Positions 22,962 through 37,941 of a DNA stretch of 64,000 bases are shown piece after piece. Location: positions 4,704,001-4,768,000 of the forward strand of contig JASGJH010000001.1 of NCBI GenBank assembly GCA_047601445.1, read 5' to 3'. The notes beneath the pieces were generated by a model. It did not search any database. It had not been told where the DNA came from and worked only from the letters and a program-made list of their open reading frames with translations. This DNA is from Myxococcales bacterium. Lineage in GTDB: Bacteria > Myxococcota_A > Polyangia > Polyangiales > DASUME01. Both the position numbers and the translations under genes were made by a program. Numbering within the stretch: the stretch's first letter is position 1; the number at the start of each line of letters is the position of its first letter.

Positions 22962-24137
22962 ATGACCTTGCCCTTCACCGTGCGGGCCCTCGATGTCCAC
23001 TCGCGCGCGCGCCGCGGCACGCTGATCACCGCCCACGGCGCGGTGGAGACGCCCGCTTTCATGGCCGTGGGTACACGCGCCACCGTGACCGGATTGACGC
23101 CGGATGATCTGCGCGCAGTGGGCGCGCAGGTGGTGCTGGGCAACACCTATCACTTGATGCTGCGCCCGGGTCCCGAGCTGTTTCGACGGGTCGGCGGCAT
23201 CCACGCGTACATGAAGTGGTCCGGCCCCGTGCTCACCGATTCGGGCGGCTACCAGATCTTCTCGCTCTCGGAGGACCGCACCATCAACGAGAAGGGTGCG
23301 CGCTTCAAGAGCTACGTCGATCAACGCTTCTATCTGCTCTCGCCCGAACGCTCCATCGAGATGCAGACGGCCATCGGCTCCGACATCATGATGGTGCTCG
23401 ACGAGTGCGTGGATTCGAACTCCGACGAGGCCCGCACGCGCGCCGCCATGGAGCGCACCCATCGTTGGGCCCTGCGCAGCTTGGCCGCGCGCACGAACCC
23501 GGCGCAGGCCCTGTTCGCCATCGTGCAGGGCGGTGTCGTGGCGTCGCTGCGCAAGGAGTCGGCGGACTTCCTGACCCAGCATCCATTCGACGGCTTCGCC
23601 ATCGGTGGACTCGCCGTGGGCGACACGCGCGCGCAGCGCGAGGAGATGACCCACTTCTCGGCGCAACTCTTGCCCGCCGAGCGTCCACGCTACCTGATGG
23701 GCGTGGGCACGCCGCCCGATTTGCTGCACGCAATTTTGGCCGGTGTGGACATGTTCGACTGCGTCCTGCCCACCCACCTCGGCTGGCAAGGCACCGGCTT
23801 CACCTCCACGGGGCGCGTACGCATCACGCGGGCTGCCAATGCCGATGCCGACGTGCCGCTCGACGCCGCCTGCAACTGCAGCACGTGCCGCACCTTCAGC
23901 CGCTCCTATTTGCACCATCTCTTCAAGTGCAGCGAGCCACTCGGACCGCGCCTCCTGTCGATCCACAACCTGCACCACTATCACAGCCTGATGGCCGAGG
24001 CGCGTGCCGCCATCGAAGCGGGCGTCTACGCGAGCTTCGCCAGGCAAAAGCTCGACGCCATCGATCGCCACGAGCACAGTGACAAGCGGCTCGGCGCCGC
24101 CTTAGCTGCAGTCGGCTCTCCAGTCGACGCGGTGTAA
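22962..24137 (+). CDS. tgt: tRNA-guanine transglycosylase, atypical variant
   Basis: ETPAFM, GNTYHL, TDSGGYQIFSL, DEC, QGG, GGLAVG, YLMGVG, DMFDC and Zn site CNCSTC...HN. Confidence 0.92.
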   Translation: MTLPFTVRALDVHSRARRGTLITAHGAVETPAFMAVGTRATVTGLTPDDLRAVGAQVVLGNTYHLMLRPGPELFRRVGGIHAYMKWSGPVLTDSGGYQIFSLSEDRTINEKGARFKSYVDQRFYLLSPERSIEMQTAIGSDIMMVLDECVDSNSDEARTRAAMERTHRWALRSLAARTNPAQALFAIVQGGVVASLRKESADFLTQHPFDGFAIGGLAVGDTRAQREEMTHFSAQLLPAERPRYLMGVGTPPDLLHAILAGVDMFDCVLPTHLGWQGTGFTSTGRVRITRAANADADVPLDAACNCSTCRTFSRSYLHHLFKCSEPLGPRLLSIHNLHHYHSLMAEARAAIEAGVYASFARQKLDAIDRHEHSDKRLGAALAAVGSPVDAV

Positions 24138-24138
24138 C

Positions 24139-24987
24139 GTGAGCACTTCCCGCGAGTGTGAGGTCGTGATCACGCGCAGTGGCGCACATGCGATGCTGGA
24201 TCACGCTTCCGGCGAGGTCATGCACCCGGTGGTGGGTCCCCTGGTAGAGGCCGAGCAACTCTACCTGCAACCGAGCCGCCTGCGCGAACGCTTGAGCACG
24301 TCGAGCAGCGACCCGCTCGTGCTGTTCGACGTGGGCCTCGGCGCAGGCTCCAACGCGGCCCTCGCGTTTCGCACCTCCGAGGCCTTGCGCGGCCTGCGCC
24401 GTCCACTGACCATCGTGAGCTTCGAGACCTCCCTCGCAGCCTTCGCGCTGGCCGCGACCTCCGAACACCGCGCCGCGTTCGGCCTCGACGACGACGTACT
24501 GCCCGCGGCGCGCGCGCTGCTCGAGCGGGGCGAACACCGCACACCCCACACGCACTGGCGGTTGGTGCGGGGCGACGTACTCGAGACCATCCGCGCGGAA
24601 CCGGCCCAAGCTGCCGATGTGGTGTTCTGGGATCCCTTCTCGCCGCGCGCCAATCCCGCGCTCTGGACCGCGGCAGCCTTCGAAGCGCTCCACCGCGCCT
24701 GTCGCCCCGGCGTCAGCGTCCACACCTACAGCACCGCGACCGCCGTGCGCAGCGCGCTCCTGTTGGCGGGCTTCGCCGTGGGCCAAGGACCGAGCACTGG
24801 CGAAAAGGCGCAGACCACCCTGGCGGCTCTGGACGCGCGAGATCTCGCGCAACCGCTCGACCTACGTTGGCTCACCCGGCTGACGCGCTCGTCGGCGCCC
24901 TTCCCTAGTGACGCTCCGCCAGACGCCATGCAGCGCGTGCACGCGCTGGCCCAGTTCAGTCCCGCGGACGCGCGAACCAGCCCTTGA
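24139..24987 (+). CDS. MnmC(MnmD)-like SAM-dependent methyltransferase
   Basis: Motif I DVGLGAG, SFE, GD, FWDPFSP..NPALWT, TYS..TAVR..L..AGF. Starts 1 nt after the tgt stop. Confidence 0.82.
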   Translation: MSTSRECEVVITRSGAHAMLDHASGEVMHPVVGPLVEAEQLYLQPSRLRERLSTSSSDPLVLFDVGLGAGSNAALAFRTSEALRGLRRPLTIVSFETSLAAFALAATSEHRAAFGLDDDVLPAARALLERGEHRTPHTHWRLVRGDVLETIRAEPAQAADVVFWDPFSPRANPALWTAAAFEALHRACRPGVSVHTYSTATAVRSALLLAGFAVGQGPSTGEKAQTTLAALDARDLAQPLDLRWLTRLTRSSAPFPSDAPPDAMQRVHALAQFSPADARTSP

Positions 24988-25417: not shown

Positions 25418-26122
25418 TCACTCGCTGCGCTGCTTTTGCGGCCGATAGGGGTACACCCAGCTCAAGAACGGGTTCACCGTGCGCGTTTGGACCCACACCT
25501 TGCCCTGCCCCGAGAAGCGCACCACCAACCCTTCGCCGCCGAAGAAGAACGACTTCGCGCGCCCGCCCAGACCGAGGCCCGGCAAGACGCTCACGTCGTA
25601 TCGCAAGGTATCCTCGAACGCGACCACGTAGCCCGTGTCCACCAGCATGTCCGTGGTGACATCGAGCTCCAGTACAGCTCCGTAGGCATTGAAGAACACG
25701 TCGCCCTCGCCGCTCGCTTGCAACAGGACGAGCCCTTGCCCCGAGAAGAAGCCGCGCGCGCCTGCCCACTTGGCCGTCACGTTCACACCTTCGCCGTTCG
25801 CGAGATAGCCGCCGCGCTGCACCATCAAACGCCCGCCGCGCAGGCGGTAGTGCACGATGTCGCCGGCGGGGCCGGGCGCCAAACAGAGCTCGCCCGCTTG
25901 CTGCGCGGTGTAGGTGTTCACGATCATGCTCTCGCCGGCGAACATGCGACCCATGCTGCCGAGCACGCCACCCTTGAGCCCCGCCTTCAGCTGGATGCCG
26001 GGATCCATGCTGGCCATGGCCGAGGGTTCGCTGAACAGCTTTTGTCCACTCGCGAGGCGCACGCGCAGCATGGCGAAGTCGGGGCGCTCGAGGATGTCGA
26101 AGTCGAACGAAGGAGTGGTCAC
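25418..26122 (-). CDS. AIM24/TIGR00266 family protein (3rd copy)
   Basis: SEPSAMASM, FAGES, PGPAGDI, GDVFFNAYG, VDTGYVVAF, GEGLV. Confidence 0.88.
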   Translation of the reverse strand: MTTPSFDFDILERPDFAMLRVRLASGQKLFSEPSAMASMDPGIQLKAGLKGGVLGSMGRMFAGESMIVNTYTAQQAGELCLAPGPAGDIVHYRLRGGRLMVQRGGYLANGEGVNVTAKWAGARGFFSGQGLVLLQASGEGDVFFNAYGAVLELDVTTDMLVDTGYVVAFEDTLRYDVSVLPGLGLGGRAKSFFFGGEGLVVRFSGQGKVWVQTRTVNPFLSWVYPYRPQKQRSE

Positions 26123-26135
26123 CGGGCGTCCTCTC

Positions 26136-26816
26136 TCAGCGTGGGTAGAGCATGGGTCCGAGCAGCTTGCCGAAGCTCGGAGGGTTGTGGCTCTGGCAGT
26201 AGAGCTTGCCGGTGCCACGGAAGTGACACACGAGTCCTTCGCCGCTCAGGTAGCTCTGCATCCAGCTGTCACCGAGCTTGCCGACCTCGAAGTTCAGGGT
26301 GTCCTCGAAGGCCACGATGTGTCCGGAGTCGACCACGTAGGTGCCGTCGATGGGTACCTCGTAGATGGCGCCGAAGCTGTTGAGGAACACGTCGCCCACG
26401 CCGCTGCACTTGACCCAAAACACGCTCTCGCCGGAGAACAGCGCCTTGCCGAGGCCCTGGAAGCTGCCGTCGATGTCCACGCCAGGGCCCGAGGCGAGCC
26501 AGCTCGACCCCTGCACGATCAAGGAGCCACCCGTGAGCCGATGGTGGACCACGTCTCCGCACAGGCCCGGCCCCAGGATGAGCTCCTGTCCCGCGGCGCC
26601 GGCGGTGAAGTGATTCAAGAAGAAGTTCTCGCCGGCCACCATGCGCTTGACCCCGGCCCAGAAGCCGCCGCCGCCTTTGCGACTCGCGCTGGTTTGCACC
26701 GTAAAGCCGCTGGTCATGGCGATCATCGCGCCAACCTCGCAGACCACGGTCTCGCCGCGCTGCATGGTGAGCTTCACGACGGACGCCGATGGACGCGCCA
26801 GAATTTCTGCCTGCAC
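26136..26816 (-). CDS. AIM24/TIGR00266 family protein (2nd copy)
   Basis: EVGAMIAM, AGENFFLN, FSGES, VDSGHIVAF, SGEGLV, QSHN. Confidence 0.9.
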   Translation of the reverse strand: MQAEILARPSASVVKLTMQRGETVVCEVGAMIAMTSGFTVQTSASRKGGGGFWAGVKRMVAGENFFLNHFTAGAAGQELILGPGLCGDVVHHRLTGGSLIVQGSSWLASGPGVDIDGSFQGLGKALFSGESVFWVKCSGVGDVFLNSFGAIYEVPIDGTYVVDSGHIVAFEDTLNFEVGKLGDSWMQSYLSGEGLVCHFRGTGKLYCQSHNPPSFGKLLGPMLYPR

Positions 26817-26826
26817 GTGAGACTCC

Positions 26827-27480
26827 TCAGAGGTGACTGTTGACCCAGCTCGCCAGGCCCTGAAGGGACCGACTCTGCATGTAGATGCGGCCTTGCCCGC
26901 GGATGCGCATCACGAGGCCCTCGCCGCTAAAAAAGCTGGAAAACAGGCCACCCGCCATCCCCAAGCGAAGCTCCAAAGTGGGCTCGTAAGCCACCAGATG
27001 CCCGCTGTCGACCACGTACTCGCCCTGCACGTCCTTCTCCACGATGCCACCGTAGGCACCGAACCAGACCCGGCCGTGGCCGCTCACCTTGAGCCGAAAC
27101 AAGCCCTCGCGCGCGATCAGGCTACGCAGGCCGGCGTAACCCAGCCCGAATTCGACGCTGGGGTCACAGGCCAGGAACGCGCCTGGCTGCAGGTAGAGCG
27201 TCTGCCCCTTGAGCTCCACCATCTCGATGTCTCCTGGGACCGGCTGGGTCAACACCAGCTCGCCCTCCGACTCGCTCGAGAACTCGTTCAGGAACAACGT
27301 CTCCCCGCCGAACAGGGCGCGCAAAATGGCGCGGAAGAAACCACCGTTCCAGCGCGTTTGCACGGCGATGGAGCTGGACATGCTCGCCATGGCGTCCGAT
27401 TCGGTAACGATGCGGTCCCCGCGCGCCAAACGGACCAACAGGTTCGCGAACGAAGGGCGATTGCGGATTTGGATCTGCAT
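26827..27480 (-). CDS. AIM24/TIGR00266 family protein (1st copy)
   Basis: ESDAMASM, GGETLFLN, PGDI, VDSGHLVAY, SGEGLV, QSR. Confidence 0.9.
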   Translation of the reverse strand: MQIQIRNRPSFANLLVRLARGDRIVTESDAMASMSSSIAVQTRWNGGFFRAILRALFGGETLFLNEFSSESEGELVLTQPVPGDIEMVELKGQTLYLQPGAFLACDPSVEFGLGYAGLRSLIAREGLFRLKVSGHGRVWFGAYGGIVEKDVQGEYVVDSGHLVAYEPTLELRLGMAGGLFSSFFSGEGLVMRIRGQGRIYMQSRSLQGLASWVNSHL

Positions 27481-28988: not shown

Positions 28989-29040
28989 CAACTGAAAAAA
29001 AGCGTAGCAGAAACTGACAAATCGCTTGGGCAGGTCGGCG

Positions 29041-29208
29041 GGCATCCTGCATCCGGCATCCGGCATCCGGCATCCGGCATCCGGCATCCGCCATCGGCCA
29101 TCCGCCAGCGGCCAGCGGCCAGCGGCCAGCGGCCATCCGCCATCTGCCATCTGCCATCTGCCAGCGGCCATCCGCTATCGGCCATCCGCTATCGGCCATC
29201 CGCTATCC
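29041..29208. repeat. Heptamer tandem array (24 in-phase units)
   Basis: Units GGCATCC, GCCAGCG, GCCATCT, GCCATCC and GCTATCG, all in 7-nt register. Confidence 0.92.
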
Positions 29209-29229
29209 GCACGCAGCGGTCCGCTTGCG

Positions 29230-29337
29230 GCCTCGGACACCGCCACCGCCTCGGACACCGCCACCGCCTCGGACACCGCCACCGCCTCGGACACTGCCAC
29301 CGCCACCGCCGTGGTCACGACCGCCGTGGTCACGACC
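29230..29337. repeat. 18-mer x4 plus 15-mer x2 tandem repeats
   Basis: GCCTCGGACACCGCCACC x4 (one mismatch), then GCCGTGGTCACGACC x2. Confidence 0.9.
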
Positions 29338-29416
29338 GCTACCGTGACAACGGCCGGCTTCCTCCTTCTCCGCGCGCAGAGGGTTGGCGGGGCTACCTAG
29401 TGGGGCAGGAGGAACG

Positions 29417-37248: not shown

Positions 37249-37941
37249 TCAGACACCCTGTTTGTCGGCGCCCCAGATGTACTTGTGGAGCTGCAGGTTC
37301 ACGCGCACGGCTAGCTTGTCCTCGAGCACCCAAGCCACCAGCTCGCGTGGATCGAGCACGCCATGCACCGGTGAGAACAGCACCTGCCGTACGCGGCGCG
37401 CGAGCTGCTCGCGTTCGACCACCGCCCGCGCCCACTCGTAGTCGGCACGGTCGCGCAGCACCAGCTTGACCTCGTCGCGGCCGGTGAGGTGCGGCAGGTT
37501 CTCCCAGCGATTGCGCGCAGACTCGCCGCTGCCCGGGGCCTTCAGATCGACGATGCGATGAACCCTCGGATCGATCGCGGAGACGTCGCGCTCCCCGCTG
37601 GTCTCGATCAAGACCGTCTTGCCCGCATCGCACAGCTCCTTGAGCAGCGGGATGGTGCCTGCCTGGAGCAGTGGCTCGCCGCCGGTGAGCTCGACCAAGG
37701 GGGTGTCGAAGGCGAGCGCCTGGGCGAGCACCTCCGAGCGCGCGAGCTTCTTGCCACCGTGGAAGGCCTGCGGTGTGTCGCACCAGCTGCAGCGTAGATT
37801 GCAGCCGGTGGTGCGCACGAAGGTGCAGGGCAGCCCCGCGAAGCTCGATTCGCCCTGAATCGACGCGTAAATCTCGTGGATGACCAGCACATCGTCGCGC
37901 ATTTCGGGCTCAAGCGTAGTGGCGCGGGGCGCTTCTGCCAC
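37249..37941 (-). CDS. queE: 7-carboxy-7-deazaguanine synthase (radical SAM)
   Basis: SIQGE, GCNLRCSWCDT, TGGEPLLQ, ETSG, QLHKYIW. Alternative start ATG 37902. Confidence 0.9.
   Translation of the reverse strand: MAEAPRATTLEPEMRDDVLVIHEIYASIQGESSFAGLPCTFVRTTGCNLRCSWCDTPQAFHGGKKLARSEVLAQALAFDTPLVELTGGEPLLQAGTIPLLKELCDAGKTVLIETSGERDVSAIDPRVHRIVDLKAPGSGESARNRWENLPHLTGRDEVKLVLRDRADYEWARAVVEREQLARRVRQVLFSPVHGVLDPRELVAWVLEDKLAVRVNLQLHKYIWGADKQGV

Follow-up and report, generated by a model that had tools for sequence, protein, structure and literature searches.

Why would a bacterium that already holds a canonical tRNA-guanine transglycosylase (Tgt) keep a second, divergent copy beside a methyltransferase of the MnmC type? 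This question is raised by two neighboring genes in a window of 64,000 nucleotides from a Myxococcales bacterium (contig JASGJH010000001.1, positions 4,704,001 to 4,768,000), whose genome consists of one contig, 98.68% complete and with 5.43% contamination. Positions below are those of the window, and positions elsewhere in the genome carry the prefix C1. The initial annotation had proposed a candidate new tRNA 7-deazaguanine modification system, where preQ1 would be inserted into a non-GUN tRNA or another RNA, and then methylated instead of being used for queuosine.

A Conserved Two-Gene Unit

The first gene (22962..24137, plus strand) encodes a paralogous tRNA-guanine transglycosylase of 391 residues, here called Tgt2, which was assigned to a myxobacterial subclade (the W-subclade) by profile match, alignment, tree, and residue table. 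The second (24139..24987, plus strand) starts with GTG and encodes an MnmC2-like SAM-dependent methyltransferase of 282 residues, which belongs to a clade of its own within PF05430. Only one intergenic base, C24138 (24138..24138, plus strand), separates the Tgt stop codon from the GTG start, just as the initial annotation had read this junction, and both genes are likely to be translationally coupled. Since the flanking genes on either side are encoded on the opposite strand, tgt2 and the methyltransferase gene form a two-gene unit; a promoter and terminator scan found none upstream of this operon. Comparison with the copies of the same genus yielded 134 synonymous and 23 non-synonymous codon differences for tgt2, and 71 and 80, respectively, for the methyltransferase, indicating that both genes are intact and that Tgt2 is under strong constraint. 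The close homologues bearing names come from Polyangiales and other Myxococcota. Downstream of the pair, the window also contains three similar tandem genes (25418-27480, minus strand), of which the one scanned belongs to the TIGR00266 family, and short low-complexity repeats between genes (approximately 29000-29400) with repetitive translations in several frames.

The pairing is conserved, mostly as a fusion, and it is not due to chance. Among longer homologues, 119 of the best 120 combine PF01702 with PF05430. When species-representative genomes were scanned for the motif, at least 120 matches were obtained, from which the 80 loci with flanks were used (40 without flanks were left out) and three were discarded as chance matches. 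Among the matches listed, the resulting 77 methyltransferase loci comprise 56 where the gene is fused to tgt, 14 where it is adjacent, and seven with no tgt within 3.5 kb. These seven loci, together with stand-alone paralogues of the methyltransferase clade, speak against the pairing model; in the two of them that were inspected, Tgt2 is encoded on the same strand, approximately 10 kb and 6 kb upstream, respectively. The predicted fold of one fused relative (P0240; pLDDT 92.3, pTM 0.72) has a disordered linker at residues 377–387, and the top 50 matches of a fold search with it were Tgt chains only. The Tgt2–methyltransferase unit is thus real, conserved, and beyond what standard annotation explains.

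Its hosts include Myxococcota, Bdellovibrionota, Verrucomicrobiota, Spirochaetota, Acidobacteriota, and Pseudomonadota, with a patchy distribution (a close homologue in two of the 200 genomes of a phylum sample). Among 40 relatives—kin of this bacterium, many with incomplete genomes—PF05430 was found in six, exactly those with Tgt2; in one of these six Tgt2 is split into two pieces at contig ends, and in two others the genes stand on separate contigs.

Such a patchy spread across phyla would fit a role in DNA modification or defence similar to that of DpdA/DpdM systems, for which there is also a precedent: phage DpdA2 and DpdM make mdPreQ1 in DNA (10.1101/2023.04.13.536721), so that the amine of preQ1 is naturally methylated there. 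The logic is the same as that proposed for the pair studied here, with a transglycosylase inserting preQ1 and a second enzyme methylating the amine. However, the phage system acts on DNA and uses DpdA instead of a Tgt, while its methylase, DpdM, has an unrelated metal-binding DUF3109 fold (10.1101/2023.04.13.536721). Tgt2, on the contrary, is approximately 45% identical to tRNA Tgts. Moreover, no PADLOC match and no dpd neighbors were found, and no third gene is conserved, the largest neighbor clusters covering four of the 77 loci among the matches listed. Neither viral contigs, with a single pattern match that is not a methyltransferase, nor plasmid records, with seven weak matches to classical MnmC, contained a true match. 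A role in DNA modification or defence is therefore highly improbable.

Tgt2, a Divergent Paralogue of the Canonical Tgt

Tgt2 scores 469.6 bits against the Pfam TGT profile and 441 bits against TIGR00430 (cut-off 306.75), compared with 113 bits against the archaeosine-type model TIGR00432 (cut-off 350). It shares the fold and the zinc site of the bacterial queuosine Tgts (TIGR00430; Z. mobilis 1ENU/1Q2R and the E. coli enzyme), together with their Asp102, Asp156, Asp280, Gln203, Gly230, Met260, Cys158, and Val233 (Z. mobilis numbering). The DSGG, DEC, GLAVG, and FDC motifs and the Cys/Cys/Cys/His zinc site named in the initial annotation were all found. Asp93 (23238..23240, plus strand), equivalent to the catalytic Asp102, and Asp147-x-Cys149 (23400..23408, plus strand), equivalent to the Asp156 and Cys158 that read guanine and form the preQ1 pocket, are kept in 124 of 124 aligned rows. 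GLAVGD (23607..23624, plus strand) retains the pocket residues Gly230–Val233, with Asp221 in place of Glu235. Asp266, corresponding to the nucleophile Asp280, is followed by PTHLGWQ (23757..23789, plus strand), which replaces the canonical Arg286-x-x-Arg289 helix, His272 aligning with Arg286 and Trp275 with Arg289. The preQ1 pocket is defined by Cys158 and Val233 (PMC3660597). The archaeosine- and queuine-inserting enzymes have an enlarged pocket with Val158 and Gly233, whereas Tgt2 keeps the Cys/Val pair. This full conservation of residues argues for Tgt2 being an active transglycosylase of the preQ1 type.

The unusual ATVT, AVGD, and PTHLGWQG motifs are likewise present as claimed. Direct contacts to U35 have been attributed to Arg286 and Arg289 of the Z. 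mobilis enzyme, and no report of them was found in the literature searched. Arg286 lines the region of the pocket for ribose 34 and phosphate 35 (PMC5395182). Lys52, which is aligned with Thr43 of Tgt2 (23088..23090, plus strand), touches uracil 35, as the initial annotation had stated, and also forms a salt bridge in the dimer (10.1101/2020.09.01.277731).

The search for a second canonical tgt, suggested in that annotation, identified one elsewhere in the genome: it is encoded directly behind queA (C1:665614-667852), has the canonical motifs, and is 50% identical to Tgt2, which has no queA beside it. QueG and MnmA are also encoded in this genome. The coexistence of both copies is general, as tgt was found at two or more loci (TIGR00430) in 49 of 50 carrier genomes, three of the 49 with fragmentary copies; these 50 are a subset, chosen for breadth, of the 77 carriers among the matches listed. 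The unlinked tgt copies that were retrieved keep Arg286 and Arg289 in 22 of 22 cases.

In a quick IQ-TREE analysis of 124 rows (four short rows dropped, midpoint root, SH-aLRT support, no bootstrap), 76 variants lie on one side of a branch with an SH-aLRT of 100 and 48 canonical rows on the other. The variant label was set by motif, yet it matches the origin of the sequences, since every one of the 76 variants was taken from a carrier locus, and every one of the 48 canonical rows from an unlinked one. Tgt2 is thus a second, divergent Tgt of a separate clade from the queA-linked copy. All 76 variants have retained the zinc ligands along with the catalytic and pocket residues listed above. Arg286 and Arg289, however, are both found in every one of the 48 canonical rows, but together in none of the 76 variants, where Asn290 is replaced as well, His127 is mostly Tyr, and a new Arg at position 304 is invariant (76/76, versus 2/48 canonical rows).

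The other substitutions are more restricted. Lys52Thr, Glu235Asp, and, mostly, Arg289Trp mark the 21-row myxobacterial subclade that holds this Tgt2: position 52 is Thr in 21 of 21 rows of the W-subclade, but Lys or Arg in the canonical rows (48/48) and in the other variants (55/55), which also keep Glu235. The set of variant residues initially regarded as a single signature therefore splits in two, with the loss of the arginine pair extending to the whole clade, and Lys52Thr and Glu235Asp being limited to 21 of the 76 rows. The retention of position 52 as Lys or Arg in 55 of 76 variants, and its additional role in the dimer, count against an altered specificity for position 35.

These data also bear on the possibility that the Tyr, His, Asn, and Asp (GUN) tRNAs, or some of them, receive preQ1 from Tgt2, which the methyltransferase then caps, so that queuosine would be replaced under certain conditions. 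The equivalents of Gly263 and Asp267 on the U33 side are kept in most variants, as is Lys/Arg52, and the specificity of bacterial Tgt has been described as modest (PMC4425180). Nevertheless, a second Tgt would be superfluous for tRNAs that are already loaded by the canonical copy, which is retained in 49 of 50 genomes, and canonical and variant rows differ in the arginine pair. Capping of GUN tRNAs is, for these reasons, unlikely.

The Methyltransferase and the nm5U34 Route

The methyltransferase is the only PF05430 gene in the genome. It scores 78.2 bits against Methyltransf_30 and 90.6 bits against the MnmC2 model NF033855, under the cut-off of 136, and its best sequence match among solved structures is Aquifex MnmC2 (3VYW, E 1e-15). 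Like this protein and the N-terminal domain of E. coli MnmC, it conserves the SAM-binding glycine loop (residues 66–70, 24334..24348, plus strand; Gly66, Gly68, and Gly70 in E. coli MnmC), as well as the equivalents of Glu101, Asp178, and Phe180. The last two correspond to Asp165-Pro-Phe167 (24631..24639, plus strand), Asp178 of E. coli MnmC being the proposed base that activates the amine (PMC3648344). Unlike MnmC2/MnmD, however, the Tgt-linked proteins form their own clade (FastTree, support 99) and can occur, as here, without MnmE and MnmG; they hold an invariant N-terminal Met28-His29 motif, versus Tyr28-Phe29 in E. coli MnmC, and extra conservation in the C-terminus. Stand-alone paralogues of this clade are found in genomes of Verrucomicrobiota and Bdellovibrionota that also hold the fusion. 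Six of the 12 candidates for a second MnmC2 in carriers were rejected, as the tree placed them inside the Tgt-linked clade.

The substrate of a conventional MnmC2 is not expected to be available in this bacterium. MnmE, MnmG, MnmL, MnmM, and Elp3 were not found in the genome; E. coli MnmG gave no match as a query, and E. coli MnmE matched GTPase domains only. The sole GidA-family gene encodes a protein of 448 residues, which we take to be of the TrmFO type by its length and context. MnmG was found in none of 41 genomes of the same order, which leaves the methyltransferase without a known nm5U34 substrate here. The same order-wide absence (0/41) also bears on the U34 decoding chemistry of these myxobacteria. 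Among the wider carriers, MnmG was not found in nine of 50, and MnmE was absent from 15 of 15 MnmG-less carriers and present in three of three MnmG-positive controls. As a counterexample, the control M. jannaschii holds PF05430 without MnmG, so the absence of MnmE and MnmG does not strictly exclude a U34 substrate, and aminomethyl-uridine might be formed by a further route.

That both proteins have ordinary functions, the methyltransferase as a plain MnmC2 for mnm5(s2)U34 and Tgt2 as a redundant queuosine Tgt, could be argued from the fact that the methyltransferase has no PF05430 companion in the genome, that Tgt2 passes the TIGR00430 cut-off, and that Jaroch et al. (10.1101/2023.12.21.572861) include a TGT fusion among those of MnmC2. 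In addition, the Tgt-linked clade provides the only recognizable nm5U methylase in 33 of the 50 carriers, all MnmG-positive, where it may serve U34 and thus have a dual use. Against this interpretation, MnmE and MnmG were found neither here nor in 15 other carriers, a separate MnmC, MnmC2, or MnmM is encoded in eight of 50 carriers, the gene tracks Tgt2 and not MnmG among the 40 relatives, and the score lies under the MnmC2 cut-off. The plain-MnmC2 alternative that the initial annotation had named as a refutation is hence disfavored in this genome, and ordinary functions for both proteins are, overall, improbable.

Supply of preQ1

The initial annotation had regarded queE in the window as consistent with precursor synthesis. 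A QueE-like gene is indeed present (37249-37941, minus strand; score of 279 bits, cut-off 300), but it stands 12 kb from tgt2, outside the operon, and lends no support to synthesis, as neither QueC nor QueF was found in this genome. This incomplete de novo pathway is a point against the proposed system. QueF was not found in six carriers of the same order either, nor QueC in four genomes of this order, and QueF is present in 37 of 57 carriers overall. Given that QueC and QueF were not found and that a Vut_1/YhhQ transporter is encoded here (as in four of five genomes tested), preQ1 is probably imported by this transporter. A QueD-like gene (C1:352915-353394) is retained along with the QueE-like gene. 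The genome also encodes a second, divergent protein of the QueA family (C1:3445144-3446229; 142 bits against a cut-off of 324), behind a short-chain-dehydrogenase-like gene and an XRE-like regulator, both named by eye.

The persistence of QueD-like and QueE-like genes without QueC or QueF would be compatible with a coupled pair that carries out another chemistry, such as methylation of the free base before insertion, use of another 7-deazaguanine, or action on a different site of the RNA bound or marked by Tgt2. The Met28-His29 motif and the extra C-terminal conservation of the methyltransferase could be read in the same way, as could Glu235Asp, which in this subclade changes the peptide switch of the pocket. 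However, the preQ1 determinants Cys158 and Val233 are invariant, and Asp178 marks amine methylation. A different chemistry is possible, though rather unlikely.

Proposed Mechanism

The reading that we prefer is a two-enzyme RNA-modifying unit, apart from the queuosine pathway. Tgt2 would excise guanine in an RNA loop through a covalent intermediate of the Asp280 type and insert the imported preQ1. The coupled methyltransferase would then methylate the primary 7-aminomethyl amine with SAM as the donor and thereby yield N-methyl-preQ1, which would be the RNA counterpart of mdPreQ1 in phage DNA and would probably block QueA. As the genome combines an intact preQ1-type Tgt beside a normal one with an amine methyltransferase without another known substrate, insertion followed by N-methylation is the simplest explanation. 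We assign a probability of roughly 55% to this formation of methyl-preQ1 in RNA, all of whose enzymatic steps we infer from sequence.

The weakest step concerns the target. The proposal of G34 in a tRNA anticodon loop that lacks U35 is based on the clade-wide replacement of the residues next to position 35, together with the retention of the canonical Tgt. About two thirds of the above probability would probably fall to such a non-GUN target. A more far-reaching proposal remains tentative and has the odds against it. According to this, the 7-deazaguanine chemistry of RNA would have a third branch next to queuosine and archaeosine, where a dedicated Tgt paralogue with altered anticodon recognition and its own methyltransferase write N-methyl-preQ1 into non-GUN tRNAs or other RNA. 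Such a branch would extend over Myxococcota, Bdellovibrionota, Verrucomicrobiota, Spirochaetota, and others, and its targets would differ between subclades.

Part of this family is already in print. TGT/MnmC2 fusions are listed by Jaroch et al. in one sentence (10.1101/2023.12.21.572861); they combine the same two domains, PF01702 and MnmC2, and very probably belong to the same family as the unit described here. Their genomes were filtered for MnmAGE, so that carriers without MnmE and MnmG were excluded by design. In the available text of that study, the Tgt is not noted as a second, divergent paralogue, and the genes are fused there, while here they are split. Of the novelty initially claimed for the system, the fusion must accordingly be subtracted, and what is new is the split gene form in a lineage without MnmE and MnmG. 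A literature search, with most subscription journals outside its reach, found no study of the tgt2–methyltransferase family and no report of methyl-preQ1 in tRNA.

If correct, the proposed mechanism would add a natural nucleoside to those known from tRNA, and Tgt2 would be the first bacterial Tgt outside the U33-G34-U35 rule, in several phyla where all these genes are annotated as ordinary tgt or mnmC. Where a lineage lacks MnmE and MnmG, the fused methyltransferase would no longer be annotated as an mnm5U enzyme, and a Tgt with another loop specificity could become an orthogonal tool for site-specific RNA labeling.

Two tRNAs were considered as partners of Tgt2 and rejected. The genome encodes a second, divergent tRNA-His(GTG) (C1:5488435-5488510), with a close copy in one of 46 other genomes; such a second tRNA-His occurs in five of 47 genomes and does not track Tgt2. 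Similarly, tRNA-Leu(AAG) is also present in relatives without Tgt2. Bacterial A34 tRNAs other than that for Arg are uncommon. In this genome, tRNA-Leu(AAG) is encoded at C1:3225557-3225641 (minus strand), with no tRNA-Leu(GAG) predicted, and AAG is found in 16 of 16 loci of relatives, which implies inosine on tRNA-Leu across the order.
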